From NCBI GenBank assembly GCA_964631745.1, contig CAZVWV010000002.1, forward strand, positions 999-64,998: a stretch of DNA of 64,000 nucleotides, given 5' to 3'. Positions 4,309 to 28,689 of this stretch are shown in pieces. Numbering within the stretch: position 1 is the first letter of the stretch; every line of letters begins with the position of its first letter. This stretch comes from an uncultured Bdellovibrionales bacterium (GTDB lineage Bacteria; Bdellovibrionota_C; UBA2361; JBGSMV01). The position numbers were made by a program, and so were the translations under genes. The notes beneath the pieces were generated by a model. That model had not been told where the DNA came from, made no database searches, and saw only the letters and a list, made by a program, of their open reading frames with translations.

Positions 4309-4603
4309 GAATGTGTTATCCGTTATGTGGTGGTTTAACTTAGACTACCTTACCACCGACCTAGCCCAACTAATCTACCATGCGAAAGAGTTGGCCATCG
4401 GGCGAATCCCATATCGCGACATATTTAGCCACCACTTTTTGGGGCTGCTGCTACCACTTCGTGTTATAGACATAATATGGTCGATCTCCCCCGGCCAGCA
4501 ATGGGCACTTTGTCTGGCCTATAATTTTTGCAATGCTATTCTGATCTTTCTCATAGTTCGCGAACTCGCCAGCCCCCGCGAAGCAGCCGTAAGCGGTCAC
4601 TGA
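4232..4603 (+). pseudogene. N-terminal 123-aa fragment of a GT-C glycosyltransferase paralog, truncated by an IS66-family remnant
   Basis: DYLTTDLAQLIYHAKELAIGRIPYRDIFSHHFLGLLLPL aligns with YDITEMIYHALVVKSGRIPYVDDVTHHFMGYVFPL of the 1326..2921 protein. The ORF stops inside the IS66 terminal inverted repeat (GTAAGCG at 4589). Confidence 0.5.
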
Positions 4604-5163
4604 GGCGCGTTATTGCGCAGGCGAATTTTCCAATTTTTTAGCATTCCACTCCGCCGCCCAAAGCCGTGGCGTAAGCTCTGCCACCTTAGCCATGGGGGTG
4701 GAGTCTACACGCTGCAGCACGTCTACGAAATAATCGAACGGTCGCACGCCATGCAACCGGCACGCTGCCACTAAGGATTGCACTATGGCCACCACCTTGG
4801 CGCCAACCTCAGTCCAACAAAACATCCAGTTTTTGCGCCCCATAGGGATAGGTCGTAAGGTACGTTCAAGCTTGTTGTTATCGATGGGAACCGCCGGGTC
4901 GCCCAAAAATACGCGTAGCTCTGCTTCGGCGCGAAGCGCGTGACTGGCAGCTTTGAGAAATGCATTAGATGGTAAAAGCGCCTTGGTCAGCTGCTCAGCC
5001 CGCAGCCAGTTAAAAAACTCATCCACTATCGGACGGGAATGTCGGTCCCGGGCCTTTAGCCTCTCTTCCAAAGAGGCATCTTTAACCACTTCCTCGATAT
5101 CGTAAAGCCGGCGGATATACTCCAGCGCCTTATCACTTAGTTCCGGTTCATACTGCTTTGCTT
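4589..5163 (-). mobile_element. IS66-family remnant. It encodes only the C-terminal ~200 aa of transposase TnpC and is delimited by the characteristic GTAAGCG terminal repeat.
   Basis: ORF 4610..5242 encodes EAKQYEPELSD...VDSTPMAKVAELTPRLWAAEWNAKKLENSPAQ. This is near-identical to ORF 17997..18605 on the opposite strand. The DNA terminus GTAAGCG at 4589..4595 is the typical IS66 end. Confidence 0.8.
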
Positions 5164-5350
5164 CAAAAATAATTGCGTGCGCACTTGGTAAGTTGTCAGG
5201 GAGTGATGAAGATTCGCTAGACACAAAAATTATGTAGCACAATAATTTTCCTGATGCATTATTTTCTCTTCATTCTCGTAAAGAAAATAGCAACTTCTTT
5301 AACTGCAGCCCTTCTAGCACACACATCAGCTCGCGGTAACTTATCTCTTC

Positions 5351-5427
5351 CGTGTGTGGACTCCACCCCCATGTCTAAGGTGGCAGAGCTTACGCCAAGG
5401 CTTTGGGCGGCGGAGGGGATGCTAAAA
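5351..5427 (+). repeat. Third, 77-bp fragment of the same IS66 3' region (it encodes VDSTPMSKVAELTPRLWAAE), in direct orientation to the right copy
   Basis: 5353..5427 matches 18506..18580 with 8 substitutions. It lies 190 bp from the oppositely oriented left remnant. Confidence 0.7.
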
Positions 5428-5466: not shown

Positions 5467-6912
5467 TTAGTCCTTACCAACGGCGTTCTTTCGAATCCAT
5501 AATTGAACGCGCCGGTTATTTGATTTTATTAGTGAGAAATTACTATTAAGATACCGCTGAATATCCAGACCCTCTCTAGTCATGCGCTCATTGAGCGCCA
5601 AGAATCTTTCATGATTTTTTGGATCGATTACGATTACCTTGGCAACATCAAGAATACCGGGCATCGCCAAAGCAGAGACAGATTCATAAAACCCACAGCC
5701 AACTCCCATGGTGGTCAAAATTGGGTCTCTAAGCTTCTTACTAAGAAAGCAAAGCGAAGGGTCCGCAAAAACTAACGCCGAGGATTCGTGTGGGATATTG
5801 TCATCTAGATCTTTTGCCAAGAACCTTTGTTGATCTCTCGGTTGCCATTTCTGGAACTGGAAAGAAAGAGAAGTTACACAAATTGGATAGATCACGAGAA
5901 TACTAAACATCACAGCAAAATAGATTAGCTTGAGGCTATTTCTTTTTAGAGAGCTCTGCATGAGTTGCCAGATACCGGTAAAGGCAATCAACTTTACGAA
6001 TGGCGCGGCTAATATTATATAGTGAGGATAGGTACGGAAATAGAGGGGCAGCAGCGACGCAATCAGTGCAACAAACGCAGCCACTAAAATTTCAAACACG
6101 CATCTTGGCATTGGCAAAGCTACCATCCACAGCAAAGGGACGATGACAGGCGCAAGTAACAGGGTAAGTCGAGCCAATATTTTCCAGTCAAAAGAGAACC
6201 CGGTATAGTGCCCACCCGACAGCGTATGCAATAAGTCGACAGGCGATACACCACCGATAATATATAAGGCCGAGAAACAAAGAATAATGGGGATTGTGTA
6301 TCCGATTATAAAAATGAGTATTCGTTTAATTCTAGTTTCAATATTGAATGAGTTACGCAAAGTTAATAACAGCAAACAGGGAACAATAAATAATCCAAAC
6401 TGCTTGTAAAGAAACGCGAGACCGCTGCAATACCCTGAGAAAAAGACACCTTGAATGGGGTAACGAACGAGCAAGTAGAACGAAAATAAACTCAGTAGAG
6501 CCACAAACGGTTCGAGGACGATGTAAGTACCTTCGTAGTAGAACGTCATAAATAGAAGAGCCAGGGCGCCAAGGGTACTCAAGTTGGGGTCTTTGGTAAT
6601 TATCCTTAGGAGCTTATAAAGTATCCACGCTGTAATAAGCTGAACTACGACTAACATCGATAGGTAGATGGAATAATCAGCTTCTCGATTACTCACCCAG
6701 GCAATAACAGCAAAAGTAAATATTCCGAAAGGTGTGTATCCACAACTAAAATCCCTATAAAGGACCAATCCGTTGGATACATAATTCGCGGCACGCAAGT
6801 AGGCACCCGCATCTGGGTTGATTGGAGCAAACTCAATAATCGAACCCGCTGCTAATGCAAAGATGCAACTTAGTACAATATTTAGAAAAACGATGATTCT
6901 TCTGGGCGACAT
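5467..6912 (-). CDS. Polytopic membrane protein, probable GT-C-fold glycosyltransferase paralog
   Basis: 481 aa with at least 11 TM helices. The first-loop motif GLVLYRDFSCGYTPFG resembles that of the 1326..2921 protein, and there is a C-terminal soluble domain. It directly abuts the GT2 gene with a 0-nt gap. Confidence 0.5.
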   Translation of the reverse strand: MSPRRIIVFLNIVLSCIFALAAGSIIEFAPINPDAGAYLRAANYVSNGLVLYRDFSCGYTPFGIFTFAVIAWVSNREADYSIYLSMLVVVQLITAWILYKLLRIITKDPNLSTLGALALLFMTFYYEGTYIVLEPFVALLSLFSFYLLVRYPIQGVFFSGYCSGLAFLYKQFGLFIVPCLLLLTLRNSFNIETRIKRILIFIIGYTIPIILCFSALYIIGGVSPVDLLHTLSGGHYTGFSFDWKILARLTLLLAPVIVPLLWMVALPMPRCVFEILVAAFVALIASLLPLYFRTYPHYIILAAPFVKLIAFTGIWQLMQSSLKRNSLKLIYFAVMFSILVIYPICVTSLSFQFQKWQPRDQQRFLAKDLDDNIPHESSALVFADPSLCFLSKKLRDPILTTMGVGCGFYESVSALAMPGILDVAKVIVIDPKNHERFLALNERMTREGLDIQRYLNSNFSLIKSNNRRVQLWIRKNAVGKD

Positions 6913-7827
6913 CTAGTCAAGTTGTTTGTCAACTACATAGTTTGGGCGACCTTTAACTTCGTCTAAGATTCGCCAAATATATTCGCCAAGTATTCCCAGC
7001 ATGAACATAATGATGCCGCCAATAATAAGCAATAGCATCATAATTGGTGCCCACCCTTGGAAGGGAATCATATGCGCGTAGTACGCCCAAATGATAGTCA
7101 AGGCGTACAAGAAGCCACTGACAGCAAAGCCTCCCCCTACCACTGTGAGCAAACGAATCGGCAAATAGCTAACGTTCAAAAATGCAGAATAAAAATTCCT
7201 GAACCGTTTTACAGTATTATACTGCGATTTACCCGTTTTCCGCCGCAACTTGTCATAAGGGATAAATTTAGTTCTATAACCAGTCCATAAAATGTCATAT
7301 TGGTAGAAACGATTTCTTTCGCTCAAAGAATTTATAACATTCAATACTTTTCGGTCGAGCAAGGCGAAATCAAATCCACCAGGCGGAACATTTGGCAAGA
7401 GCAACCAATAAAAAATACGTGATGTTAATTTCCTGGCGAAGGAAGTTTGGTGAGTTCGTCTATAGCTAATGACGATTTCGCTCCCTTCCTCCCATGCCTT
7501 GATCATAGGAACACACTGCTCAGGTGGATCTTGTAAATCTGCGGCCATGTTAATCACACATTCACCGCGCGCATATTGCCAACCCGCCAGAATTGCAGCC
7601 ATTTGACCAAAATTCCTGGTAAAAGAGATAACCCGCACCTTCGCGTCACGTTCTTTTAGAGCCAATAATTCTACTAGAGAGGCATCTGTCGACCCATCAT
7701 TTACGAACAGTAATTCGTAAGAATGATGCGGGAAATGGACTGCAAATTCACCCACAATTCGCTCGTAAAGCGGCATTAGCGAACCGGCATTCTGATAAAC
7801 TGGAAAACAAACTGAAATGATACTCAC
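6913..7827 (-). CDS. GT2 polyprenyl-phosphate glycosyltransferase (ArnC/GtrB/DPM1-like) with two C-terminal TM helices
   Basis: VCFPVYQN...NDGSTD...DLQDPPE motifs of GT-A family 2, followed by the C-terminal hydrophobic hairpin typical of ArnC/GtrB. Confidence 0.8.
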   Translation of the reverse strand: MSIISVCFPVYQNAGSLMPLYERIVGEFAVHFPHHSYELLFVNDGSTDASLVELLALKERDAKVRVISFTRNFGQMAAILAGWQYARGECVINMAADLQDPPEQCVPMIKAWEEGSEIVISYRRTHQTSFARKLTSRIFYWLLLPNVPPGGFDFALLDRKVLNVINSLSERNRFYQYDILWTGYRTKFIPYDKLRRKTGKSQYNTVKRFRNFYSAFLNVSYLPIRLLTVVGGGFAVSGFLYALTIIWAYYAHMIPFQGWAPIMMLLLIIGGIIMFMLGILGEYIWRILDEVKGRPNYVVDKQLD

Positions 7828-8098
7828 GTTTCACACATGTTTATTCGATGTAGCTTGCCGTCCTAGGCCCTCATGAAGACCACACTGCACGAGAGTCACG
7901 ACACAAGCTGCATAACAAAACGCTGACCTACCATGGGTTGCCAGTCCACGGGGAAACTACCTCGCCATCCTGTTTACACGTGCGGAGTGGCGGAACTACC
8001 ATTCTTCGCGCCGGCTTGCAATGACTTGCACGATTTTCCATATCTCTTGCCCCCTCGTCCCGGAATCTATTCTCCGACTGGCATGGGAAATAGCACCA

Positions 8099-8839
8099 TT
8101 ACTTTCCCTTTTCACAAACGAGTACAATGCTAGAGCAAAGCTCGGGATAAAGCTGCCCCAATTCATAGCATCCTTTCAAATATTCATCTGAAACAATGTC
8201 CGTAGCAAGAATTCTATCCCATTGAAAGTTAGCAAGGGCCTTAAAAAAAACACCCGCTCTGTATAACACTGAAAATCCCGATGCCCGAGCATCGCGCTCA
8301 AGAGTATCGAGACTATAGGTAATTCTGTGACCATGGGCAGCTTCGGCAGCGGTTACAGCGGAATTATGCGTAATTAGTCCCATTTTAACAGCAATTTGTC
8401 GTGAAGGAGCATTAGCATTGGGGCAAACCAAGAAAAATCTACCATCATCCGTTACCCATTCTGTATTCACCCGCTTTAAGATTTCAACGGGGTTGTCCGC
8501 ATGTTCAAGAACGTGGATCATCAGAATATTATCAAATCGACACGGCAGCACTAAATCTTCGAAACGGCCATGAACAAAATTGATCTTCTTCGGTAGGCGA
8601 CTACGAGCGATGCGCAAAGCATCCGAAGACGCGTCGACACAAGTGATCTCATCAAAATGACCCAAAATTCGTTCGGTAAAATCACCTTGAAAACTGCCAA
8701 GTTCAAGAGCCTTCCCAGCTCTAAAAAATGGAGCAATGGTGCGAAGCACAAACGGGTGCATCACTTCGTAGTCAAAGCGATAGGCATACTTGCGCACTTC
8801 GTTATCTTTACATTCTTTATTGTAATCTCTGCTTGACAT
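8099..8839 (-). CDS. Class I SAM-dependent methyltransferase
   Basis: Motif I ALELGSFQGDFT and motif II/III ILMIHVLEHADNP. It is paralogous to the 13318..14058 product; both end in a PELC/PELSCG region. Confidence 0.75.
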   Translation of the reverse strand: MSSRDYNKECKDNEVRKYAYRFDYEVMHPFVLRTIAPFFRAGKALELGSFQGDFTERILGHFDEITCVDASSDALRIARSRLPKKINFVHGRFEDLVLPCRFDNILMIHVLEHADNPVEILKRVNTEWVTDDGRFFLVCPNANAPSRQIAVKMGLITHNSAVTAAEAAHGHRITYSLDTLERDARASGFSVLYRAGVFFKALANFQWDRILATDIVSDEYLKGCYELGQLYPELCSSIVLVCEKGK

Positions 8840-8899
8840 CGAAATTAAGTGTATATTTTAAGTCGCCAAATTGGAGCTCGGTCATAAATTATATTAAAA

Positions 8900-9856
8900 T
8901 CACAGTTCGACCAATTGCGCCATACCGAAACCCGTCTTGCCAAATTCATTGCCATTATAGAGTAGATAGATCTGTTCATCGCATCGAAATATATGGGGAT
9001 AGCAAAGCATTTGGGAATCCCAGCCACTTTCTGAACGATTTAATCCTCCCCTCTTGTCATCGCGAATCCAATTGACTAAATCCATCGAACGGGCATAGCC
9101 AAGCCGATAACTCCGTTGCTTTCCTGATCTAAACCCCGTAGCGTGGCGATAACAGAAATACATATGGTAGCAATCATCAATTTTAATCACGCTTGGAAGC
9201 GCCTGACACTCATTTTCGTCTAAAACAGTCTCGATAAGCTGCTTACTGTCACGTTGCCAATGAACTCCGTCCACCGACTGTGCCTGAGCAATGCGGTAAA
9301 CCCTTTGTGGCTCAGTTTCATACGGATCGCAAAACCACTTACATCCGTAGATATACCACATATAGTATCGCTCCCCAATTTTGGATACAAAAGCATCGCT
9401 GACCAAAAAGGGCTCAAGAAGCGAAGCACCTAGTACTGGGCCCTGACCAAGCTTCTCGAATGTCAGCCCTTGATCGTTACTCACCGCATAGCCAATCGAT
9501 GCCTCAGCTGATACAGAGACTCTTCTACTCCATCCAGTCGTGTATGCAATTATCTTATTCCCGTCCCGAAGAACATTCATCGGAAAAATGCCGTGTTCGT
9601 CGAAACATCCGGGTCCTCCCAAGGCGATGACAGGTTCTTGGGCGACAGCCCTAATTGATTTAAAATCCTTATCGAAATCGACATAAGCTACCAGACTCAA
9701 ATATTTTCCATTCTTGTCGAGCATTCGAGTCGAGAAATATACTCGCACAAAATCGTCAAAGACTAAGGCCTGGGGCGACTGTGCGAAAGCCGTACACTGC
9801 TTAGGAAGCTTATGGGTCGAAGGATCGAATATCTGCCCCAATTTTTTCCAAAACAT
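8900..9856 (-). CDS. BNR/Asp-box repeat beta-propeller protein (sialidase or glycoside-hydrolase-like fold), paralog 2
   Basis: Asp-box motifs SNDQGLTF and SVDGVHW. About 45% identical to the adjacent 9863..10828 product (MFWKKLGQIFDP vs MFSWKKLGRVLDP). Confidence 0.45.
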   Translation of the reverse strand: MFWKKLGQIFDPSTHKLPKQCTAFAQSPQALVFDDFVRVYFSTRMLDKNGKYLSLVAYVDFDKDFKSIRAVAQEPVIALGGPGCFDEHGIFPMNVLRDGNKIIAYTTGWSRRVSVSAEASIGYAVSNDQGLTFEKLGQGPVLGASLLEPFLVSDAFVSKIGERYYMWYIYGCKWFCDPYETEPQRVYRIAQAQSVDGVHWQRDSKQLIETVLDENECQALPSVIKIDDCYHMYFCYRHATGFRSGKQRSYRLGYARSMDLVNWIRDDKRGGLNRSESGWDSQMLCYPHIFRCDEQIYLLYNGNEFGKTGFGMAQLVEL

Positions 9857-9862
9857 TTCTTC

Positions 9863-10828
9863 TTAAGCCCCCGAGTAAGTGTCTAATTCTGCTAATCCAA
9901 AACCGACTCTGCCGATTTCATTCCCTTGGTAAAGCACGTACAGTTTACCGTCCAGTTCTACCAAATGAGCATAGCTTATAGATTCCGAGTCCCATCCGGA
10001 CCCCGACGTAGTCAAACCGGCTCGTCCATCCAAACGCACCCAATTATAAAGGTCGTCCGAGCAAGCATAGCCTATACGATAACCACGAGTTGGCTGAGTG
10101 AATCTCAGTGCATACCGGTATGAAAAAAACATATGATACTTATCTCTGAAGAAGGTGACATCGGGACTTGCTTGACATTCCTCTTCGCTCAAGACGGGAG
10201 GAATTAATGTCTTGCCAACTTTAGTCCAGTTCAACCCGTCACTCGAGTAGGCCATGCGTATCTTGTATACCGGTTCTGAACGAGTATCGGTCAGTAGCCA
10301 CTTATCGCCCGCGACGTACCAAAGGTACCACATGTCTTTAAATCTTCTAATTTTTGGACTCCCGATAACAAAGGGTTCGTCTGGGCTATAACCGAGCACT
10401 GGTCCTTCACCAAGACGTTGAAAAGTTTCTCCATTATCCCAGCTGACGGCGACACCAATAGCAGCATTAAACGGGACCGATTCGCATCTGGTCCAACCTG
10501 CATAATACAGTCTTATTTCGTCACCGTAGCGAATGACAGAAGCAGGATAGATACCAAATTCATCGAAGGTGCCTAAGCGGCCGAGCGGTAAGACTGGATT
10601 TGGAGCCAATGCTTTGACACAACGAAGATCTTTTCGATCTAAATCGACGTAACCAAGCTGGCTTACATACTGACCGGCACTATCGGGAGATGTACGAGAT
10701 GAGAAGAAGACTCGAACATTCTCGTCAAGCACCAAGGCTGAAGGAGCCTGCGCAAACTCTCGAATCCATGTTGAACTTGGTATTGAGGCGGGATCAAGAA
10801 CTCTACCCAATTTTTTCCATGAAAACAT
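9863..10828 (-). CDS. BNR/Asp-box repeat beta-propeller protein (sialidase or glycoside-hydrolase-like fold), paralog 1
   Basis: Asp-box motifs SWDNGETF and SSDGLNWT. Tandem paralog of the 8900..9856 product. Confidence 0.45.
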   Translation of the reverse strand: MFSWKKLGRVLDPASIPSSTWIREFAQAPSALVLDENVRVFFSSRTSPDSAGQYVSQLGYVDLDRKDLRCVKALAPNPVLPLGRLGTFDEFGIYPASVIRYGDEIRLYYAGWTRCESVPFNAAIGVAVSWDNGETFQRLGEGPVLGYSPDEPFVIGSPKIRRFKDMWYLWYVAGDKWLLTDTRSEPVYKIRMAYSSDGLNWTKVGKTLIPPVLSEEECQASPDVTFFRDKYHMFFSYRYALRFTQPTRGYRIGYACSDDLYNWVRLDGRAGLTTSGSGWDSESISYAHLVELDGKLYVLYQGNEIGRVGFGLAELDTYSGA

Positions 10829-10839
10829 ATTCCGTGCTG

Positions 10840-11511
10840 CTAAGACAGTTTACACAAACTCTCTGCACCGGTTTTCAAGCATCCATAGTAATAGTCGTTA
10901 AAACCAGCGGCTTCCATCATCTCGAAAATTTTATGCATATCGTATGTGACCCTATGTAATTCAAATCGACCATCGAATGTCGCAAAAGCAGCACGCGGGT
11001 CCTTGTCTCGTGGTTGCCCAACTGAGCCGGGGTTGCAATAAGCCTTGCTGCCATAGTCGCATAAGATCTGCTTATGAGTGTGCCCTGAAACAAAAAATTT
11101 GCCGACAATATTACGAAAATAGTCAGCAGTAGGTTGTACATACTCATCAATGGGATCCGACCAACCGCCGTGAACCAAATGCAGCTTACCTACTCTTCTA
11201 TGCAACGAAAGTTGGCTTAACCAGCTCAAGTTGTCCGCGGTAATAATCTTGCGTTGGTAGGTCAAACAATCGTTGACACTTCTGGAGCGCGGACAGAAGC
11301 CTCCGCCCACCATATACCAATCGTGATTGCCCATTATTGTGGGGATTTCACGCCCTATGAGCTCCTGACAACACTCATTGATCTGAGGATAATAGCCTAC
11401 GACATCACCAAGACAATACACCTGCGACACGCGCAGCGCATCTAGCTTCGCCAAGACCGATTGTAATGCTTCGTAATTGCCATGGATATCAGAAATGAGA
11501 CCAATTTTCAT
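10840..11511 (-). CDS. Calcineurin-like metallophosphoesterase (YfcE/MJ0936-type)
   Basis: DIHGN, GDvvgyyP, GNHD and GHTH motifs. Overlaps the upstream ATP-grasp gene by 4 nt. Confidence 0.75.
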   Translation of the reverse strand: MKIGLISDIHGNYEALQSVLAKLDALRVSQVYCLGDVVGYYPQINECCQELIGREIPTIMGNHDWYMVGGGFCPRSRSVNDCLTYQRKIITADNLSWLSQLSLHRRVGKLHLVHGGWSDPIDEYVQPTADYFRNIVGKFFVSGHTHKQILCDYGSKAYCNPGSVGQPRDKDPRAAFATFDGRFELHRVTYDMHKIFEMMEAAGFNDYYYGCLKTGAESLCKLS

Positions 11512-12470
11512 TTATACGAAACTAAGTCTTCCACATAACGTACCGCTTCGCCATATCTAAGCTTGGGCTGGCGCGGCAACTTCTTTTCTAGAAAAAAATC
11601 AACTAACATCGCAGACTCGTTGTAGCCAAAAGCAGTTCGCATAGATGTGGAAGAAGAGATGCGCGGGTTAATTTCAAGCAATTTTAAGGCCCCGGCGTGT
11701 TTTCTAAATTGAAAATTTGTAGGTCCCAGCGGGCGAAAATAGCGGCACAGTTCGCGCAAGACATCTTGCGCCTCATCGAGTTTCACAACTTCCGCCCTGT
11801 CCGTATATCCATCCTTTGATAACCTACGGCGCAAACTTATTTGCGCACAGTAATCGCCATTTCCATCACCAAAGACTGAAACAGTATACTCTTCCTCGTC
11901 ACTTCCCACAAGTGCTTGCGACATTAAAGACTTACCAATATTCTCACGATGGGCCAGAAATACAGTCCGATCTGCCACCCTCACTATTCCGCGAGCAGCA
12001 TGCCCATGACGCGGTTTCAATATGAACGGAACGCCGAACCGTTCAGCAAGAAGATCAAAATTGTCATCCAATGACGAATCTATAACAAATGCTGGATTGA
12101 GTTTTGCCAGGTGTCCATAAAAAACCCATTTGTCCTTGCAAAGGGCGATTAACTCCGGTCTGTTCAGCGCGAATATGCGGCTGTTTTTTGACATTTCATG
12201 CAAATTCTCACTCCACTTGTACATATCAATCTCAATTCCCGGGACAACTAAATCCACTGCATGCTTACGAATCGTTGCATCCAACCATCCTATATAGCCG
12301 TCGTCATTTGTATTCGGAGCAACTTCAAAAATATCACTGAAGTGTTCAGCGATAGTTCCCGTATAGATGGAAGTGCCAATCAGCGTCACGTTTTCATGGA
12401 CTTTCCGCAGGGAACGCAAAATTCCATAACCGATAATTCCACTGGCTCCCGAAACCAAAATTGTTGTCAT
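11508..12470 (-). CDS. ATP-grasp family ligase
   Basis: FILKPRHGHAARGI (the ATP-binding lysine loop) and LEINPRISSS (the E-x-N signature of ATP-grasp enzymes). N-terminal Rossmann-like GASGIIG. Confidence 0.75.
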   Translation of the reverse strand: MTTILVSGASGIIGYGILRSLRKVHENVTLIGTSIYTGTIAEHFSDIFEVAPNTNDDGYIGWLDATIRKHAVDLVVPGIEIDMYKWSENLHEMSKNSRIFALNRPELIALCKDKWVFYGHLAKLNPAFVIDSSLDDNFDLLAERFGVPFILKPRHGHAARGIVRVADRTVFLAHRENIGKSLMSQALVGSDEEEYTVSVFGDGNGDYCAQISLRRRLSKDGYTDRAEVVKLDEAQDVLRELCRYFRPLGPTNFQFRKHAGALKLLEINPRISSSTSMRTAFGYNESAMLVDFFLEKKLPRQPKLRYGEAVRYVEDLVSYK

Positions 12471-13354
12471 ATGTCTATCTTTGTCCTTCTCGAAGATGCT
12501 ATGCGATTTAACCCTTCCTGAATAGAAATCTTAGGGTAAAAACCGATTCGCTCATAAAGCGAGAAGTTCTTATGGAAGATCTTATCAGCAAGGTCGTCTC
12601 GCGTAATATCGAAGCTGACCTTCCCATGGCGCCCAAACGCCTCAAAGGCGGCATTAGCAACAGTTGAATAAGAATAATCCTGTACATACTGGCAATTGTA
12701 GATCCCTTCGAGACGCAGCTGTACAACTCGGCGCAAGACATCCGTGAGATCTTCGATGAAAATGTAATTTCGTAAAGCGTCATGGCTACCGTAAATGATG
12801 ATATCTCTGCCAGCTTGAGCTTGATCAATAATATGATACAAGAAAGGCTGATGTCGACGGAAGTTTTCAGTCTCACCGTAAATTTGAGAAGGACGCACGA
12901 TGCACAACGGGAGAGAGTTGGTTGCACAATGCATCACCGCCACATCCTCAGAATATCTTTTTGTCAAAGCATATGGTGAATACGAAGCAAAACCTTGCCC
13001 AATAGATGCAAAAATGCTCGAAACTTGAATAAAATGCTTTGCGCCCATTTTGGCGGCTTTTTCACAAAGCCTTAGTGTCCCAAGGACATTAATATTGATT
13101 GCGTCTGATAGTTGATTATACGACGCACCTCCGAAGTGCGCCGCGGTATTTATAACAACATCCAGATTCGTTGGAATTTCCATCTCCTCTGGACCTTCCG
13201 CCAAGTCAACATGAACATCACAAGAATTCCGGCCGCCGGTCACTACCTCACAGAATTCAGAAAGCGCAACTTTGAGTGCTACCCCTAATGCAGAATGACC
13301 CCCGACAATCAGAACTTTCATCGCATCCTCTGAATTTGGGCTAGTATTCCGCAC
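12467..13354 (-). CDS. NAD-dependent epimerase/dehydratase family (extended SDR) protein
   Basis: N-terminal MKVLIVGGHSALG nucleotide-binding motif and catalytic YALTK (YxxxK). Overlaps both neighbouring genes by 4 nt and 37 nt. Confidence 0.7.
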   Translation of the reverse strand: MRNTSPNSEDAMKVLIVGGHSALGVALKVALSEFCEVVTGGRNSCDVHVDLAEGPEEMEIPTNLDVVINTAAHFGGASYNQLSDAININVLGTLRLCEKAAKMGAKHFIQVSSIFASIGQGFASYSPYALTKRYSEDVAVMHCATNSLPLCIVRPSQIYGETENFRRHQPFLYHIIDQAQAGRDIIIYGSHDALRNYIFIEDLTDVLRRVVQLRLEGIYNCQYVQDYSYSTVANAAFEAFGRHGKVSFDITRDDLADKIFHKNFSLYERIGFYPKISIQEGLNRIASSRRTKIDI

Positions 13355-14058
13355 GAAAGTTCAGGATAACCAATTCCTACTTCACATAATGCGTCGATAA
13401 TCCGATGGTCTAGCTTCAAATCCAAAATTTGCTTGGTCGTAAACGGTTTGAGATAAATTCCTTCCAATTGCGCAATCTCACAACCTGCCTTATGCACGTC
13501 CTCTCTCAATGTACGAACAGTATAGTAGCGCTTGTGTCCAAGCAAAACATCATTGCCCGATAGCTCTTCGATGTTGGGCAGCAAGCCCGCAATGTGCCCC
13601 AGCCTTCGATTAAGGGCTTCGGCATTAGGCACGGCAACATATAGTGTCCCACCGGGCTCCAAAAATCTTGCATAACGCGAAATGAGAAAAGCGGGATTAT
13701 CCACATGCTCCAAAACAAAGCCCAAAACAATCAAGTCAAAAATCTCAGTGGTGTCAAAACTTTCGAAGAGTGACTCAACTACTTGCGCTGAACAATCTGG
13801 AAATCTTTGCTTAAAATGGACTGTGACGGCAGGCGAACCATCTATCACCACATGTCGTTTAAAATGCTTCGCGAATCTAGCGGTGGAATACCCATGACCC
13901 AATCCTAACTCTAATAAAGACTTCGCCTCACCTGACAAGGCAATGATTCGCTCAGGATACCAATTCAATAAAATTTCATTATCAAAATCGTACAAAATCC
14001 CACCGTTATAGGCAGTGACCGATCTATCCAATGTTTTATTCATAGGTGTGTCACTCAT
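13318..14058 (-). CDS. Class I SAM-dependent methyltransferase, paralog of the 8099..8839 product
   Basis: Motif I LELGLGHGYS, LIVLGFVLEHVDNP, and a C-terminus co-linear with the other methyltransferase. Confidence 0.7.
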   Translation of the reverse strand: MSDTPMNKTLDRSVTAYNGGILYDFDNEILLNWYPERIIALSGEAKSLLELGLGHGYSTARFAKHFKRHVVIDGSPAVTVHFKQRFPDCSAQVVESLFESFDTTEIFDLIVLGFVLEHVDNPAFLISRYARFLEPGGTLYVAVPNAEALNRRLGHIAGLLPNIEELSGNDVLLGHKRYYTVRTLREDVHKAGCEIAQLEGIYLKPFTTKQILDLKLDHRIIDALCEVGIGYPELSCGILAQIQRMR

Positions 14059-14064
14059 GTCTTA

Positions 14065-15150
14065 TTATTCGATTACTTCACCGACGATCCTAGCTATTTT
14101 GGAAACAATTTCAGACTCAAGGTCATGATACAATGGTAAGCATAGCACTCGCTTGGCTACGTCTTCCGTAATTGGAACGCTTTGCGGTTTAACATAATTA
14201 AGCCTATTCAGCGCAGGGTAAAAGTAGCGACGGGTCAATATAAGTTGATCTTTCAACGCAGCACGGACACGCAACAAAACGCTTTCTGATTCAAAAAGCA
14301 CAGGATAGTAAGAATAATTATATTGCAGACCTGGTTGGCTAGTCGGCCTGCTAAGCTTAGCCTTCCAAAATGGCGCCAGCAGCCTGTCGTATTCATCGGT
14401 TACGACTTTTCTTTTTTGAATGAGTGTTGGAACATGGGGAAGAACTGCTAGGCCCATAGCAGCGTGGAGTTCCGAATTCTTTGCATTAATTCCTAATCCA
14501 AAAAAAGCCTCGGGGCCATTGTGCCCGAAATTCATCAAGTAAAATATCTTGTGTGCGAGGTCATCGTCATTAGTTAAAATGGCCCCGCCTTCCCCAGTAT
14601 GAAATAGTTTAGTGGCATGGAAACTGACTGTCGAGATATCGCCGTTATTTAATATCGCTTTTCCATTCAAACGACACGCAAAAGCCTGGGCCCCGTCGTA
14701 TATGACCTTGAGACGATTAGCTTCTGCGATTTGCTGTATTTTTTCCACATCGCAACTATTACCGTAAACATGCACCGGCAAAATTGCCGATGTATTTCCA
14801 TTAATTTTTGCTTCTATACATGCAGGGTCGAGACAAAATGTGCGCGGGTCTATTTCAGAATAAATTGGCTCGCACCCCTCCCAACAAATCGCCGCGGTAG
14901 TGGCGACGTAACTGAAAGCGCTAGTGATAATTTCCCCACCAAGTCCTAGTGCGCGAATAGCAATTTGCAAGGCAATCGTGCCGTTGCTGACTAGATAAAC
15001 ATGCTTTACTCCGAACAGAGACTTAAGCTCGGCCTGCAAGCGCTGAGATAGAGGACCATGATTCGTAACCCAACGCTGGTCCCAAATTTGCCGCAGATAT
15101 TCCACATAGGTATTAAAATCGGGAACGAATGTTTTGGTTACGGTAATCAT
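14065..15150 (-). CDS. DegT/DnrJ/EryC1/StrS-family PLP-dependent sugar aminotransferase (ArnB/PseC-like)
   Basis: 361 aa. SFHATK carries the PLP lysine. Family-typical N-terminus (VTKTFVPDFNTYVEYLRQIWD..WVTNHGP) and C-terminal LCLPLYHDL. Confidence 0.85.
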   Translation of the reverse strand: MITVTKTFVPDFNTYVEYLRQIWDQRWVTNHGPLSQRLQAELKSLFGVKHVYLVSNGTIALQIAIRALGLGGEIITSAFSYVATTAAICWEGCEPIYSEIDPRTFCLDPACIEAKINGNTSAILPVHVYGNSCDVEKIQQIAEANRLKVIYDGAQAFACRLNGKAILNNGDISTVSFHATKLFHTGEGGAILTNDDDLAHKIFYLMNFGHNGPEAFFGLGINAKNSELHAAMGLAVLPHVPTLIQKRKVVTDEYDRLLAPFWKAKLSRPTSQPGLQYNYSYYPVLFESESVLLRVRAALKDQLILTRRYFYPALNRLNYVKPQSVPITEDVAKRVLCLPLYHDLESEIVSKIARIVGEVIE

Positions 15151-15629
15151 TGGTAACCGTCTCCAATTGTACCTGAATTGAAAAATTTACAGTTTGAAAT
15201 ATATTTGCACGATATTGTATACAATTCATCAATCCCTTTCGGATCTTTCTATCACTAAGTCACAGCTCGGTCGATAGCCCCAGGACAATCTCACTGGCAG
15301 CAACCTATCGTCCTATAATCTACTGGTATAATTGAGGAAATTGAAATGAGGCAGATAGGCAAGAGTTGCACCCCTGAATAGAGTTAGCATTATAGTCTAA
15401 CCTATCAGAAGAAAAGCCGATGGAAGCGCGTCTAGTAAATTTCGCACTACTGTCACATTTTTCAGTTATCAGGGATCCACGTCGCATATGCGGAAAGTTA
15501 CATCGGCTTGAGAAGATCTTATGCCTGTCTGTGTAGGGCATTATAAGCGGAGCTGAGAGTTGGGTTGAAACTCTGCGCAGGCCAGTAAGTGCAGAAATAG
15601 TATCGATTGACGGAAAGACGCTGCGGCGT

Positions 15630-16301
15630 TCATTTGACAAGGCAAACGGTTTGCATCCACTTCATATAGTGAGCGCACTGGTCATAGCGTCCGCCAGCGG
15701 CCACGCTCCCACACTCCCTGTATCCCTCCATCTGCACCTCCAGAATGGTGCCGGTATAGTAATCCAATCCGCGAGCAAGGCTCAGGTCGACCTCGATGTT
15801 AGCCAGCGCATCGGGATCCAAAAGCGATACAAGCTCCACCATTTTCGTCTTTGCCTTCCAAGCAGAGCTTATTGTTCACTTACAAGCTAGACAGAACGTA
15901 CCGCCTTCAGCCGCAGGAATTTTTACCTCCGCAAAGTCGGTGATTCTTTTGGCTTGGCTTTGGTCGATCTTGACCTTTTCAATGAGATCTTTAAGCACTG
16001 CATCTCTGCCGGTCTTGGCAATTTTATCCAGCACCGTTATGGCAGCCTTTGACTCGTCGGCATTCAGGCCAAGCGAGGCACAGATTCCAAGCAACAGCTT
16101 ACGGTTATTAATACGCATGGCATGTTTACCGACATCAAGCACCTTGAAGACCTGATGCATGGCCGAGCGGTAGGTGCAGCACCTGTGCCGGACTTTGGTC
16201 ATACATCCTGGGCGACACCGTGCGCTTTGTGGATTCAATTCCGCCGCGCGTGATGGTAACCGGCCGCACGTCGTAATTACCTCTCGGCATTCCGTGAACA
16301 T
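15630..16301 (-). pseudogene. Decayed fragment of a histidyl-tRNA synthetase-like (HisS/HisZ class II) gene with in-frame stops
   Basis: [16 protein letters not shown]...[10 protein letters not shown] is the HisRS motif-3 region. Upstream in the same frame, INNRKLLLGI...ITVLDKIAKTGRDAVLKDL.EKVKID matches the HisRS insertion domain. Two stop codons at 15876..15878 and 15870..15872 separate the pieces. The N-terminal motif 1/2 region and the anticodon-binding domain are absent. Confidence 0.5.
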
Positions 16302-16898
16302 TTAATAGCCGAAGAGATCGAGGCCGGAATTTCCGGGGCCGCCGCCGCCATCGGGCGGGATGTAAGCGATTATCCGGTAGGCGCTCTGTACCCAACCAGC
16401 GCGTTGGAGCTAGGCGGCCATCTTTATGTGGTGGAGTTCAGCGGAACAGGCGAGATTCAAAACCAAAAGGCTCTAGATGAATTCTCAGCCGTCTTAGACC
16501 GCATACTCTGCGCGCGAAGCGCGGATTACGCCGCCCACCGAAACTAAGGTTTCGGGCTTAAGCCGCCCCAAATAAAGCCTGTGCGACCTGGGTCTTTTGC
16601 GGATTGAATGAAATCACGCGGCAAGTTCGGCGGGCAGAATAAGGTGCCACGGATTATTAATCGGGGGAGGTGTTTGATGGGCTGGTGGCGTATGAGTGAG
16701 GAGGAGGAGCACTTGAGGGTCTATCTATGATGCAAGAGTGGCTGTCTATTACTAGCCCCATTTTGGATCAAAGATCACGACTCTTAATTGAAGCTATGGG
16801 TTCAGTTTTGTCCTTAAGCGGGTGATCGGGTCTTTCGCTAGGGCCCGGGAAAATCTATCGTCTTACAGGATTCAGGAATTAGAACAGGTAGGTCACTC

Positions 16899-17603
16899 GT
16901 GAAAATAGCTATCATGCAACCGTACTGGTTTCCATACATCGGCTATTTTCAGCTCATGTCCGCAGTGGACACCTTCATAGTATACGACAATGTGCAGTAT
17001 ACAAAAAAGGGTTGGGTTAATCGCAATCGAATACTCCATCAAAGTCAACCAGTTCAAATCTCCATACCCATAAAGAAAGGGGGTCATTCGCTATTCATAA
17101 TTGACCGGATCATTGCTGACAATTGGAGTACACAACGGTGGAGAATCTTAAATCAAGTGCGCGATTTTTACCTGCAAGCTCCGATGTATCAAGATGTATT
17201 CCCACTAGTAGAGAACTGCCTATTGCACGAAGATTTAAATCTTTTTCGACATATTTCCTATTCAATTCGTAAGACCCGTGAGTACATGGGCTTGGCGTCA
17301 ACTTTTCTCGTTTCCTCCGAATTAAAAATCGATCACACCCTAAAAGGAGAAGACAAAGTTATTGCAATTTGTAGCGAAATCGGCGCAAAGCAATACATAA
17401 ACCCAATCGGTGGAACCGAACTTTACTCCAGGGAGAAATTCGCCTCATATGGCATTGATTTGCGATTCTTGAAGTCAAAGCAAATTGAATACAAACAATT
17501 CGATAAATCCTTCGTGCCTTGGCTCTCAATAATTGACGTGTTAATGTTTAATGACCTAGAAACTACTAATCAGTTTCTGAAACACGAATATATGTTGCTG
17601 TAA
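16899..17603 (+). CDS. WbqC-like family protein (function unknown, polysaccharide loci)
   Basis: MKIAIMQPYWFPYIGYFQLMSAVDTFIVYDNVQYTKKGWVNRNRI is the hallmark N-terminus of the WbqC family. GTG start. Confidence 0.75.
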   Translation: MKIAIMQPYWFPYIGYFQLMSAVDTFIVYDNVQYTKKGWVNRNRILHQSQPVQISIPIKKGGHSLFIIDRIIADNWSTQRWRILNQVRDFYLQAPMYQDVFPLVENCLLHEDLNLFRHISYSIRKTREYMGLASTFLVSSELKIDHTLKGEDKVIAICSEIGAKQYINPIGGTELYSREKFASYGIDLRFLKSKQIEYKQFDKSFVPWLSIIDVLMFNDLETTNQFLKHEYMLL

Positions 17604-17746: not shown

Positions 17747-18626
17747 ATGACAGTGAAAGCGTTTTGCGCGGAGCGCAAGCTCAATTACTATACGTTTAAG
17801 GGCTGGCAGAGAGTGTTTAGCCGAGAGGGAGTAGAGCAGTTTCGCGAGTTGGCACCCACGCCAAATGCGGAGGCTAGCTACGCTGTAGTGTTAGCCAACG
17901 GCCGGGAGCTTAAAGTAAGCGCTGGATTTTCGATTACATCTAGGGGGCCAGGGGAACGGTACCAATTCTGGTCAACCACCGATCCGGTCGGCACTTTTGT
18001 TAGAGCCCATATACGAGGCGCAGCTAGCCTCGGCGCTCAACGAGTTCTTTGAAGCAAAGCAGTATGAACCGGAACTAAGTGATAGGGCGCTGGAGTATAT
18101 CCGCCGACTTTACGATATCGAGGAAGTGGTTAAAGATGCCTCTTTGGAAGAGAGGCTAAAGGCCCGGGACCGACATTCCCGTCCGATAGTGGATGAGTTT
18201 TTTAACTGGCTGCGGGCTGAGCAGCTGACCAAGGCGCTTTTACCATCTAATGCATTTCTCAAAGCTGCCAGTCACGCGCTTCGCGCCGAAGCAGAGCTAC
18301 GCGTATTTTTGGGCGACCCGGCGGTTCCCATCGATAACAACAAGCTTGAACGTACCTTACGACCTATCCCTATGGGGCGCAAAAACTGGATGTTTTGTTG
18401 GACTGAGGTTGGCGCCAAGGTGGTGGCCATAGTGCAATCCTTAGTGGCAGCGTGCCGGTTGCATGGCGTGCGACCGTTCGATTATTTCGTAGACGTGCTG
18501 CAGCGTGTAGACTCCACCCCCATGGCTAAGGTGGCAGAGCTTACGCCACGGCTTTGGGCGGCGGAGTGGAATTCTAAAAAATTGGAAAATTCGCCTGCGC
18601 AATAACGCGCCTCAGTGACCGCTTAC
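17747..18626 (+). mobile_element. IS66-family remnant. A short tnpA-like ORF (17747..18052) is fused or adjacent to the C-terminal ~200 aa of tnpC (17997..18605), ending in the terminal repeat CGCTTAC at 18620..18626. tnpB and the N-terminal half of tnpC are deleted.
   Basis: HTH-like FCAERKLNYYTFKGWQR and ...VVLANGRELKVSAGF resemble IS66 TnpA. 18049..18622 is about 97% identical to the reverse complement of 4590..5163. Confidence 0.75.
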
Positions 18627-18833: not shown

Positions 18834-20306
18834 CTACATCCCACCCACAGCCACTTCAGCCAGCCGATACAGCCCTGATGGGAACAGCCCAAAATACACG
18901 ACCCCAAAGGCGCAGAGCGCCATTGAGAGCTTTATTAGTGCGTTTGGCCCGATTGAGGATTGGAGGGTGCGGGATTCTTCGTCGCCTTCTATGAAGTACA
19001 TGGCTACGATTACTCGGAGGTAGTAGTAGCAGGAGACGGCGGAGCTTAGGATGCCTAGGATGGCTAGGCCGGGGTAGCCGGCTTTTACTACGGCGCTGAA
19101 GACGTAGACTTTGCCCATTAGGCCGGCCATGCCGGGGGGCAGGCCTGCTAGGGAAAGTAGGAATAGGGTGAAGAGTGCGGCTAGGAGGGGTTGGGTTGTG
19201 CTTAGGCCGTTAAAGCGTGAGAGGTTATCTGCGTGGCGCTCGGATGAGAATCTGCTGCTTATGGCTATTAGGGCGCCGAATGCGCCCATGGTCATTAGGG
19301 TGTAAGAGACTAGGTAATAGAGCGCGCCGGGGCCGCCGCCGAAGTCGTTCGTGGGGGCAAGCAGGGCCATTAGAACGTAGCCTGCGTGGGCTATGCTGGA
19401 ATATGCCAGCATGCGTTTAACACTTCGTTGTCTTAGGGCGATTAGGTTTCCTATTACCATGGTTAGTAGCGCCAGGGTCCAGACTAGGCCGGACCATTGG
19501 GTGAAGTAGGCTCCAAAGCCGGTCCAGATAACTCTGAATGCGGCCGCAAAAGCTGATGCTTTAATGGCGCAGGCCATGAAGGCTGTTACGGGGGTTGGCG
19601 CGCCTTGGTAGACATCGGGCGCCCAGTAGTGAAACGGAACGGCTCCAATTTTGAAGGCCAACCCGATGATTATCAGTCCTAGTCCTATTAGGGAGAGAGT
19701 TTGATCGCCTTTGATAATTAGCTCGCCGATTATGGCTATATCGGTGCTGCCGGTTACTCCGTATAGAATGGCTATACCAAATAAGAGAAAGGCTGAACTA
19801 AAGGAGCCTAGAAAGAAATATTTTAGGGCGGCTTCAGAGGAAACTTTGCGATCGTAGGCGGCCCCGCAAAGGCAGTAGAGCGCCATCGACATAATCTCAA
19901 GCGCCAGGAATAACATAATAAGCTCAGCGGAGGTGGCAAACCAGATCGCACCGGCTGTGGCCATCAGATACAGCGCGTAGTATTCGGCTGTGGACTCTAT
20001 GCCCTCGTCTCTTAACTTATTGAGTCCTAGTAAAATTCCAAAAAGTGATCCGGCTAGAATTAATACCGTTACAAAGAGCGCGTACGGGTCGGCGAATATA
20101 AATCCTTGGAAGATTCGGGAACCGGCTTGAAAGCCGGAGAGGTTAAAGGCGCAAGCGACAAGTGAGAGCACCACTATGTTACCGGCGAAAGCTCCGCGTG
20201 CCCACTCTGCTTTCGAAAATACATCTATCAAGAGAAGCAGCATTGCCCCTATGCAAAGTATGATGGGGGCGGCTCCTAATGAGAGCTCACTTAGTAGCGC
20301 ATTCAT
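18834..20306 (-). CDS. nuoN: NADH-quinone oxidoreductase subunit N
   Basis: 490 aa, 14-TM antiporter-like subunit, last gene of the nuo operon. Confidence 0.9.
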   Translation of the reverse strand: MNALLSELSLGAAPIILCIGAMLLLLIDVFSKAEWARGAFAGNIVVLSLVACAFNLSGFQAGSRIFQGFIFADPYALFVTVLILAGSLFGILLGLNKLRDEGIESTAEYYALYLMATAGAIWFATSAELIMLFLALEIMSMALYCLCGAAYDRKVSSEAALKYFFLGSFSSAFLLFGIAILYGVTGSTDIAIIGELIIKGDQTLSLIGLGLIIIGLAFKIGAVPFHYWAPDVYQGAPTPVTAFMACAIKASAFAAAFRVIWTGFGAYFTQWSGLVWTLALLTMVIGNLIALRQRSVKRMLAYSSIAHAGYVLMALLAPTNDFGGGPGALYYLVSYTLMTMGAFGALIAISSRFSSERHADNLSRFNGLSTTQPLLAALFTLFLLSLAGLPPGMAGLMGKVYVFSAVVKAGYPGLAILGILSSAVSCYYYLRVIVAMYFIEGDEESRTLQSSIGPNALIKLSMALCAFGVVYFGLFPSGLYRLAEVAVGGM

Positions 20307-20307
20307 C

Positions 20308-21912: not shown

Positions 21913-21918
21913 ATCTTC

Positions 21919-23805: not shown

Positions 23806-23810
23806 ATTTA

Positions 23811-24113
23811 TTATAGCTTTAGCTCCGTAGCGCTTGAAGTCTCAATGCTCTGATTATTTCTAAACAATGAAAGAATTATAGCCAAGCCAACAGCCGCCTC
23901 GGCCGCGGCCACTACCATCACAAAGAATACAGCCATCTGGCCGGTTAGGTTGCCGTGCATTCTTGAAAAGGCCACAAAAACCAGGTTGACGGCGTTTAGC
24001 ATCAGCTCTAAGCACATGAACACCACAATCGCGTTGCGCCGCACAATCACGCCTATGGCGCCGATGGTGAACATGATCGTGGCCAAAACTAAATATTGTG
24101 TTACCGGTACCAC
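23811..24113 (-). CDS. nuoK: NADH-quinone oxidoreductase subunit K
   Basis: 100 aa, 3 TM helices. [18 protein letters not shown]. Confidence 0.9.
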
Positions 24114-24115
24114 AA

Positions 24116-24613
24116 TTAGCGCTCCCTGTATTTTCGTTTAGACAACATTATCGCCCCTACTACCGCCACCATAATCAGCACGGAAGCAGCCTCGAAGGGG
24201 AAGACGTACTTGGTGTAAAGCTCCCGGCCCATGGCTGCTACGCTGCCTTGTAGCGCCGCGCTTGGCATGGCCGTGGTGATTCCGAACTCAAAGTGCTGGC
24301 CTACAGTAAATAAGAATATAATTCCTAGGAAAACTGCCGCCAAAAAATACGGGATATTAATGGCATTACCCAGCGGTTCAATCTTTACGTTTAAAAGCAT
24401 TAGCACGAACATCACAAGCACCATGATGGCGCCTGCGTAAACTATGATTTGCACGACTGCCAAAAAATGTGCGTCCAAAGTCGCAAAGAGCGCTGCTACT
24501 GTCACAAGATTTAGCACTAATGATAAGCCGCTATAGATCGGGTTTTTAAAAGCCACGACCATCACGGCGGTCACAATCAGCACAATCGATAAGAGGTAAA
24601 ATCCAATTTCCAT
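24116..24613 (-). CDS. nuoJ: NADH-quinone oxidoreductase subunit J
   Basis: 165 aa membrane subunit. It lies 4 nt downstream of nuoH, with no nuoI between them. Confidence 0.85.
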
Positions 24614-24617
24614 ATCA

Positions 24618-28671: not shown

Positions 28672-28689
28672 TGTATCTACTTCAATCTG

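Follow-up and report, generated by a model that had tools for sequence, protein, structure and literature searches.

A putative modular glycan-decoration cassette in the genome of an uncultured Bdellovibrionales bacterium

What is built by a cluster of sugar-tailoring genes whose delivery proteins recall the Arn system and whose other proteins do not? The question is raised by a stretch of 64,000 nucleotides (nt) from an uncultured Bdellovibrionales bacterium (assembly GCA_964631745.1, contig CAZVWV010000002.1, positions 999 to 64,998 of the forward strand), hereafter called the window, to which all coordinates refer unless another locus is named. Nine intact, tightly packed minus-strand genes (6913-15150) code there, in this order, for a DegT aminotransferase, a methyltransferase (MT1), a short-chain dehydrogenase/reductase (SDR), an ATP-grasp ligase, a metallophosphoesterase, two propeller proteins (PropA and PropB), a second methyltransferase (MT2) and a family 2 glycosyltransferase (GT2). 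A WbqC family protein is encoded apart from them. The window is read here as carrying a modular cassette for glycan decoration, conserved elsewhere, in a copy that was gained by horizontal transfer and is partly rearranged. We hold this reading of the full pathway to be evenly balanced between right and wrong. The most likely product of the cassette is an acylated, methylated amino sugar that is put on the cell surface via a lipid carrier. The genes concerned are the following.

14065-15150, minus strand: DegT aminotransferase (PF01041, 3e-85).
13318-14058, minus strand: MT1, class I S-adenosylmethionine (SAM) methyltransferase (Methyltransf_23, 7e-17; weak NodS similarity).
12467-13354, minus strand, likely start at 13321: extended SDR of the epimerase/reductase type (PF01370, 1e-24).
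11508-12470, minus strand: ATP-grasp ligase of the PRK12767/ATPgrasp_Ter type (NF009402, 196.3 bits for a cut-off of 218; PF15632, 2e-12).
10840-11511, minus strand: YfcE-like metallophosphoesterase (PF12850, 9e-22).
9863-10828, minus strand: PropA, predicted five-bladed propeller (GH32N, 3e-6; NF052550, 2e-11).
8900-9856, minus strand: PropB, paralogous predicted five-bladed propeller (PF04041, 26.0 bits; structure model).
8099-8839, minus strand: MT2, class I SAM methyltransferase (Methyltransf_23, 8e-14).
6913-7827, minus strand: GT2, polyprenyl-phosphate glycosyltransferase, ArnC/GtrB/PgfS-like (PF00535, 2e-21; full-length matches to PgfS and ArnC models).
5467-6912, minus strand: membrane protein with ten transmembrane (TM) helices, probable GT-C transferase (transitive PMT_2/PMT homology).
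16899-17603, plus strand: WbqC family protein (PF08889, 3e-66).

A conserved cassette with exchangeable slots

One genome per species of the Genome Taxonomy Database was scanned for relatives of PropB. At least 539 species genomes have one, and the loci that were kept, 80 in number (56-65% identity), represent more than ten phyla, spanning Bacteroidota, Alpha-, Beta- and Gammaproteobacteria, Campylobacterota, Desulfobacterota, Chloroflexota, Firmicutes, Verrucomicrobiota, Chlorobi and bacteria of the candidate phyla radiation (CPR). The window proteins, mapped on the fetched loci at about 40-70% protein identity, reveal the recurring order DegT, WbqC, (slot 1), PropA, PropB, (slot 2), MT2, often followed by GT2. 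Slot 1 designates the space between WbqC and PropA, and slot 2 that between PropB and MT2. PropA and PropB both belong to the invariant core, PropA lying directly upstream of PropB wherever the contig reaches that far. MT2, also of the core, comes after PropB in almost all loci of sufficient extent, most of its counterparts being 58-67% identical, while MT1 (56-64% identity to its counterparts) is optional and adjoins WbqC in the canonical loci. One locus, L005, has exactly the genes of the window in the same order, except that WbqC lies between DegT and MT1; the copy in the window is therefore a rearranged derivative. An earlier reading of this DNA from its sequence alone (the sequence-only reading) had recommended a search of other genomes for the gene set. 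Dozens of unrelated genomes show the same gene order, so the grouping is not a chance one.

The intact open reading frames (ORFs) listed by that reading are found at their places, with family matches for all ten. The overlaps of 4 nt that it described are seen at two junctions (SDR/ATP-grasp, 12467-12470; ATP-grasp/phosphoesterase, 11508-11511), and the remaining minus-strand gaps measure 0-60 nt except for the 271 nt between MT2 and GT2. The likely true start of the SDR is the ATG at 13321, which abuts the stop codon of MT1 and yields a product of 284 amino acids (280-294 in homologues). A tightly packed amino-sugar tailoring operon is thus supported. MT1 and MT2, named as paralogues, are distant ones (28% identity). 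The genes had also been described as all co-directional, which does not hold for WbqC: it is encoded on the plus strand, divergent from the other nine genes and 1,748 nt from DegT.

Variation is confined to the acyl-capping enzymes, and the contents of the two slots almost exclude each other. An ATP-grasp-type or another large module fills slot 1 in 38 loci, and slot 2 is empty in 37 of these. With slot 1 empty, slot 2 carries an insert of about 150 amino acids in 20 of 22 loci, and the one scanned is a GNAT. Slot 2 is also occupied in 8 loci whose slot 1 contains hardly anything beyond MT1, by itself or accompanied by a 3-hydroxyacyl-CoA dehydrogenase; the insert measures about 610-690 nt in seven of them, the one scanned coding for a GNAT of 186 amino acids, and the eighth (L054) has an insert of 1,315 nt that is not a GNAT. 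The modules of slot 1 comprise MT1-SDR-ATP-grasp-phosphoesterase, the type of the window (about 25 loci), MT1 with an ATP-grasp protein whose C-terminal extension bears a HAD-type DxDxT motif, and MT1 with E1-alpha, E1-beta and a lipoyl::hexapeptide-acyltransferase fusion. Each of these modules offers a means of acyl-group formation or transfer, and the slots may be read as alternative acyl-capping chemistries on one conserved scaffold. Note that in L006 (6024-9029) the ATP-grasp block is replaced by E1-alpha, E1-beta and one protein in which a lipoyl domain is fused with a hexapeptide-repeat acyltransferase. Such a variant suggests an unusual route, in which an acyl group would pass from a 2-oxo acid via the lipoyl arm straight to the sugar amine.

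The surroundings of the cassette vary. It forms a stand-alone operon among unrelated genes of Rhizobium leguminosarum plasmids (DegT, WbqC, "glycosylase", hypothetical protein, GNAT, methyltransferase, glycosyltransferase; the GNAT is named by annotation), and the same gene set was reported between fliA and fliC of Dickeya zeae WH1 (PMC9650423). Elsewhere it adjoins genes for flagellin, TPR-GT41 or Wzm/Wzt, the last, including a Wzt with a C-terminal domain, lying upstream in about 11 loci. The cassette behaves as a plug-in precursor module. A link to a glycan of known structure was sought without success: the cassette had no match in phages, nor in Escherichia coli genomes by distant blastn, a search that sees 60% protein identity poorly.

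No characterised member of the cassette was found in the open-access literature, which bears out the earlier remark that this is not a textbook pathway, and its modular architecture has no description that we could find in the searchable literature. Its overall kind, sugar tailoring followed by delivery on a lipid carrier, is already known. In the vio island of Pseudomonas syringae the acyltransferase VioB is fed by fatty-acid-type enzymes and, to our knowledge, WbqC, the propeller pair, the ATP-grasp ligase and the phosphoesterase are missing; the comparison is one of descriptions. What this modified-viosamine flagellin glycosylation (vioA, vioB, vioR, vioM, vioT; PMC3927599) has in common with the cassette is an aminotransferase of the DesI/VioA type, N-acylation of the 4-amino group, methylation and the link to flagellin.

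The compared loci show the conservation and the modularity of the cassette, whereas the ligase role of WbqC, the step of ligase and phosphatase and the function of the propellers are inferred. The proposed pathway would start with DegT, which would aminate a nucleoside diphosphate (NDP)-4-keto-6-deoxyhexose made elsewhere in the genome, most likely deoxythymidine diphosphate (dTDP)-4-keto-6-deoxyglucose. WbqC, using ATP, would couple the sugar amine with a carboxylate, an amino acid being the probable one, and the slot enzymes would cap or extend this side chain, by GNAT acetylation in minimal cassettes. In cassettes of the window type MT1 would methylate the side chain, the ATP-grasp ligase would form another amide bond, to a phosphorylated partner, the phosphate would be taken off this partner by the metallophosphoesterase with the logic of the Cj1438/Cj1435 pair (see below) and the SDR would adjust an oxidation state. 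MT2 would then methylate the sugar, and PropA/PropB would perform an obligatory sugar-directed step, glycosyl transfer of the GH130 type being the best guess. GT2 would load the finished sugar on undecaprenyl phosphate and, after flipping, the GT-C protein would move it to a periplasmic acceptor such as lipopolysaccharide (LPS) or protein.

The carriers of the cassette number hundreds of species, soil Bacteroidota, rhizobia and CPR bacteria among them, and no function is assigned to two of its invariant families, WbqC and the propeller pair. Once solved, the function of the cassette would annotate thousands of genes now called "hypothetical" or "glycosylase", would add an amide-forming enzyme family to glycobiology and would identify a common surface epitope for phage, host and plant recognition. 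The invariant core, the mutually exclusive caps, the replacement of WbqC by an ATP-grasp protein and the pairing of ATP-grasp with phosphatase provide hypotheses that can be assayed. The value of the window itself is mainly that of one rearranged example.

The amino sugar and its candidate ligases

DegT appears closest to DesI-type 4-aminotransferases acting on 4-keto-6-deoxyhexoses. Its best-scoring model is that of DesI (TIGR04427, 245.8 bits for a cut-off of 650), its closest solved structure is also DesI (2po3, 1e-53) and its sequence features the SFHATK motif with the Schiff-base lysine. The ArnB model NF008658 gives 132.5 bits (cut-off 631), less than the DesI, WecE-type and PseC models. 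As DesI is both its best family and its best structural relative, DegT is read as a probable 4-amino-4,6-dideoxyhexose enzyme; this assignment is tentative, since the cut-off of TIGR04427 is not reached. An NDP-4-amino-4,6-dideoxyhexose as product class is supported by the DesI-like matches and by the locus of Bradyrhizobium genosp. A (L070, 13891-17851), where an RmlB-like dTDP-glucose 4,6-dehydratase (TIGR01181, 326 bits) and a second DesI-like DegT flank the cassette. The Bradyrhizobium cassette is also flanked by a membrane protein of 501 amino acids that shows an ArnT-like FDEAYYW motif by eye, without a match to a hidden Markov model (HMM).

The SDR has a readable YxxxK motif; no equivalog model passes for it and no ArnA model is among its matches.

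WbqC matches PF08889 over its full length (residues 7-223, 223.8 bits for a gathering cut-off of 21.3), a family for which no function was found in the searchable literature. Its true start is the GTG at 16899, which gives 234 amino acids and restores MQPYxFPYxGYF, the most conserved motif of the family. The public gene call (P0121, 215 amino acids) begins 19 codons late (16899-16955). The predicted structure has a nucleotide-binding fold like that of class I aminoacyl-tRNA synthetases, and two structure-search methods rank BshC first, followed by class I lysyl-, glutamyl- and cysteinyl-tRNA synthetases and by MshC. In bacillithiol and mycothiol synthesis, respectively, BshC and MshC attach cysteine to the amino group of a glucosamine derivative. 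WbqC differs from BshC by a length of less than half (234 versus 540 amino acids) and by HIGH/KMSKS motifs that are not recognisable by eye.

Gene displacement points in the same direction as the fold. In three loci from Bacteroidota (L029, 7795-8994; L044, 7772-8986; L053, 7788-8987) WbqC is absent, and a protein of 399-404 amino acids is encoded in its place between DegT and PropA. The proteins of L029 and L044, the two scanned, are ATP-grasp carboxylate-amine ligases, and the GNAT is retained downstream in all three loci. Because of its fold, similar to BshC and class I aminoacyl-tRNA synthetases, and of its replacement by an ATP-grasp ligase in these loci, WbqC is a candidate conserved ATP-dependent ligase that would acylate the amine made by DegT with a carboxylate, most probably that of an amino acid, an assignment based on fold and gene displacement and not on sequence motifs. 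With a GNAT as partner, the product of the WbqC step would still have to carry a free amine. N-aminoacylation had been attributed by the sequence-only reading to the ATP-grasp protein; its block is optional and swappable, and the conserved candidate ligase is WbqC instead.

By sequence, the ATP-grasp protein is a close relative of the uncharacterised family NF009402 (PRK12767.1-1, 'carbamoyl phosphate synthase-like'), with which it aligns over the full length and below cut-off. Its relatives in the Protein Data Bank (PDB) are 2pn1 and RimK/LysX. It is always paired with a phosphatase, which is either the metallophosphoesterase (60-70% identical across phyla) or a fused HAD-like C-terminal domain, recognised by its DxDxT motif alone with no HMM match to HAD. 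A precedent is found in the Campylobacter jejuni HS:2 capsule, where glucuronate is linked with serinol phosphate by the C-terminal ATP-dependent amidoligase of Cj1438, after which Cj1435, a HAD phosphatase, removes the phosphate (PMC11800397). The ligase-then-phosphatase logic is the same, whereas the ATP-grasp subfamily and the phosphatase superfamily are different. The pair of the window may thus work like Cj1438/Cj1435 by analogy, without being a member of the same families. Genes for type A flagellin modification of Clostridioides difficile were also considered as homologues of MT1, the ATP-grasp protein and the phosphatase and were rejected, CD0242 being described as a nucleotidyltransferase (PMC10714395).

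The HS:2 system offers an alternative role for DegT. Like Cj1437, which makes serinol phosphate from dihydroxyacetone phosphate, DegT could aminate a small phosphorylated ketone, the resulting amino-alcohol or amino-acid side group being then attached by ligation to a uronic acid that the glycan already contains. The combination of aminotransferase, ATP-dependent ligase and phosphatase follows the HS:2 logic (PMC11800397), and a dehydratase is absent from most loci. Against this stand the retention of DegT in minimal cassettes that have neither ATP-grasp nor phosphatase, its closest families, all of which are NDP-sugar aminotransferases, and the RmlB-like and DesI-like genes that adjoin the Bradyrhizobium cassette. 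We regard such a route as very unlikely and retain the amination of an NDP-4-keto-6-deoxyhexose.

The propeller pair and delivery to the cell surface

PropA and PropB are paralogues (47% identity). They have neither signal peptide nor TM helix, which assigns them to the cytoplasm. The model of PropB (pLDDT 93) is a five-bladed propeller whose fold matches glycoside hydrolase (GH) family 130 phosphorylases and the mannoside synthase Uhgb_MS. The two proteins are thus predicted to be cytoplasmic five-bladed propellers like those of GH130, GH43 and GH32. Family scores are low: PropB reaches exactly the 26-bit cut-off of PF04041 with no single domain passing, and gives 51.7 bits with NF052550 (cut-off 450), while PropA gives 27.3 bits with GH32N (cut-off 22.1) and a GH43 match under cut-off. 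They had been labelled BNR propellers, probably because each carries one clear Asp-box-like motif. This label is to be abandoned, since BNR_4 scores 17.2 bits for a cut-off of 27.3 and the model has five blades, not six. Homologues of PropB form 6158 clusters, of which the top 120 are all about 317 amino acids long, 60-66% identical and bear generic names or none. Compared with GH130 beta-mannoside phosphorylases and with GH130/GT108-type mannoside synthases, the pair differs in being an obligate association of paralogues within a biosynthetic operon and in passing no family cut-off clearly.

GH130 enzymes that act as transferases are documented (PMC12814180). This activity, the fold match to GH130 phosphorylases and Uhgb_MS and the cytoplasmic location of both propellers would also suit a different product, namely a short capped oligosaccharide. 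PropA and PropB, derived from GH130, would then add one residue each, as glycosyltransferases or as phosphorylases that run towards synthesis, and MT2 would methylate the terminal residue, for instance as a chain-terminating cap read by Wzt. The upstream Wzm/Wzt genes mentioned above, a Wzt with a C-terminal domain among them, agree with this scheme. The cassette is found, however, without an ABC transporter as well, in the Rhizobium stand-alone operon with its one GT2, in flagellar loci and with Gtr-like delivery, and no GH130 equivalog passes for the propellers, whose catalytic residues are not mapped. This scheme overlaps with the pathway proposed here, from which it differs mainly in the product, and we find it rather doubtful.

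A broader proposal, put forward tentatively, is that WbqC proteins are unrecognised small ATP-dependent ligases of the BshC/MshC kind that aminoacylate amino sugars, and that together with PropA/PropB, as a biosynthetic enzyme of GH130 descent (either a non-classical glycosyltransferase or a sugar-tailoring activity of a new type), and MT2 they could form a phylum-spanning plug-in cassette whose exchangeable caps diversify one surface sugar on LPS, flagellin and other glycoconjugates.

GT2 has about two C-terminal TM helices and matches, over the full length and under cut-off, both the PgfS model (191 bits) and the ArnC model NF007986 (139.8 bits, cut-off 529). In 14 loci the cassette is followed by a GT2 that shares 51-73% identity with that of the window. 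The gene of the membrane protein (5467-6912) begins in the base directly after the GT2 stop codon and codes for 481 amino acids with about ten TM helices. This protein has no direct match in Pfam, in NCBIfam or in PDB by phmmer, and a PDB profile search was also empty. An exhaustive HMMER search yields 383 representative clusters, and among 40 aligned relatives nine match PMT_2 and six match PMT, which are GT-C families; residue D34 in the first loop is invariant among the aligned relatives. Transitive homology alone thus makes it a probable GT-C transferase that would use a lipid-linked sugar. Note that a word-indexed homologue search was empty for the same protein, a fast search of this type missing divergent polytopic proteins. 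In other loci the orthologous GT2 adjoins polytopic proteins of 500-790 amino acids, GtrA (PF04138) lies beside it in L050 and is fused in L012, and small four-TM ORFs occur elsewhere. GT-C enzymes had been announced within 6913-17603; candidates do exist, at 5467-6912 and further left, and are thus outside that interval.

In the Arn and Gtr systems a sugar is loaded on polyprenyl phosphate by a GT2 that has two TM helices at its C terminus, and a polytopic GT-C transferase acts next. For the window, an Arn/Gtr-like delivery step is reasonably supported. The sequence-only reading saw a likeness to an extended Arn pathway; such a pathway would modify lipid A with 4-amino-4-deoxy-L-arabinose. 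The full-length match of GT2 to ArnC, the GT-C-like protein next to it and the presence of DegT and SDR agree with this view. The best model of GT2 is nevertheless PgfS, the ArnB and ArnC cut-offs are both missed and ArnB is surpassed by DesI, and the sugar-tailoring genes are unrelated to ArnA and ArnD. No formyltransferase, ArnD deformylase or ArnE/F flippase is found among the ORFs of the island or the family matches of the window. Moreover, the neighbours of the same cassette in other genomes are genes for flagellin, TPR-GT41 or Wzm/Wzt. The likeness to Arn therefore stands for the delivery architecture and not for the sugar: an Arn sugar pathway is not supported, and we consider it highly improbable as an account of the locus.

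Several observations weigh against the decoration pathway proposed here. The equivalog cut-offs are missed by all enzymes of the locus, which makes all substrate assignments inferences. The window holds neither a 4,6-dehydratase nor a nucleotidyltransferase, and an RmlB-like gene lies within 10 kb of the cassette in only 9 of 86 loci. It also holds no GtrA and no small flippase ORF. The likeness of WbqC to BshC is one of fold only, with a low Foldseek TM-score (0.38), and no sequence link of WbqC to a solved structure was found in PDB with either the single sequence or a profile. We know of no in vitro reconstitution of the ligase activity of BshC itself. The HMM alignments of the propeller to 7fip and 9fj8 are shifted by blades, and the GH130 catalytic and phosphate-binding residues are not mappable; the attempt to map the catalytic residues onto PropB was dropped for this shift in blade register. 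Finally, Cj1438C and Cj1435 were rejected as homologues, with BLASTP E-values of 9 and 5.4 against the sequences from the supplement of PMC11800397.

The island and the state of the window copy

The cassette lies in an island with a GC content of 0.435-0.466, compared with about 0.50 outside. The features that delimit or interrupt it are listed below.

15151-16898: gene debris between DegT and WbqC (HisRS fragment and GH3_C-like fragment).
4589-5167: left arm (579 nt) of the IS66 inverted repeat, a transposase remnant at the left edge of the low-GC island.
18048-18626: right arm (579 nt) of the IS66 inverted repeat, a transposase remnant that adjoins the nuo operon.

The two arms are 99% identical, carry remnants of the C terminus of IS66 transposase and look like the footprint of an acquisition or inversion mediated by the insertion sequence. 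The island was probably acquired horizontally and then reshuffled; its ten cassette ORFs are intact. The spacer between DegT and WbqC contains a HisRS fragment (15876-16301, minus strand, E 4.7e-9 to 3net) and a GH3_C-like fragment (16305-16544, plus strand, E 0.0025, under cut-off). Owing to its opposite strand and to these 1,748 nt of debris, WbqC is not on the same transcript as the minus-strand genes. Scans for Rfam families and tRNAs found none, and those for promoters and terminators gave nothing decisive.

The displaced WbqC, the lack of a flippase gene and the truncation of neighbouring membrane-protein genes mean that the copy of the window may be partly inactive, which adds to the points held above against the pathway. 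Taken further, the island would be a decaying, non-functional product of IS66-mediated transfer. The near-identical inverted remnants, the lower GC content, the inversion of WbqC and its severance from the operon by gene fragments, a truncated membrane-protein paralogue, a possible frameshift at 3027-4308 and the missing flippase gene are all consistent with decay. The ten cassette ORFs are full length relative to their homologues, however, with conserved residues intact, including MQPYxFPYxGYF of WbqC, translational coupling is preserved and the same proteins were independently recovered from a sequencing run. A non-functional copy is therefore unlikely, and the reading as a rearranged cassette is kept.

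Further remnants were noted. A third scrap of the same IS66 end (73 nt) is found at 5347-5419, and a transposase-like motif is visible by eye near 15600-15690 (plus strand), in the spacer between DegT and WbqC, without a Pfam match. The ORF of 123 amino acids at 4232-4603 (plus strand), cut off by the IS66 remnant, corresponds to the N terminus of a protein of 531 amino acids with about seven TM helices (1326-2921, minus strand), of which it is a truncated paralogue (33% identity, E 5e-18). The two proteins have in common the motif G-R-I-P-Y-x-D in the first loop, and neither has a family match. The overlapping membrane ORFs at 3027-3959 and 3892-4308 (minus strand; 310 and 138 amino acids) have no family match and may be one frameshifted gene. 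To the left of these membrane-protein genes the minus strand codes for an MqsR toxin (968-1270, Pfam 1.4e-28) and an MqsA antitoxin (559-966, 7.5e-33). Directly to the right of the island is the complex I (nuo) operon, from NuoN to NuoC (18834-31177, minus strand). The rest of the window is made of Gram-negative housekeeping genes, among them those coding MlaA, Lgt, SodB, ThrRS, an acyl-CoA carboxylase pair and a CHASE-PAS-GAF hybrid histidine kinase of 1320 amino acids.

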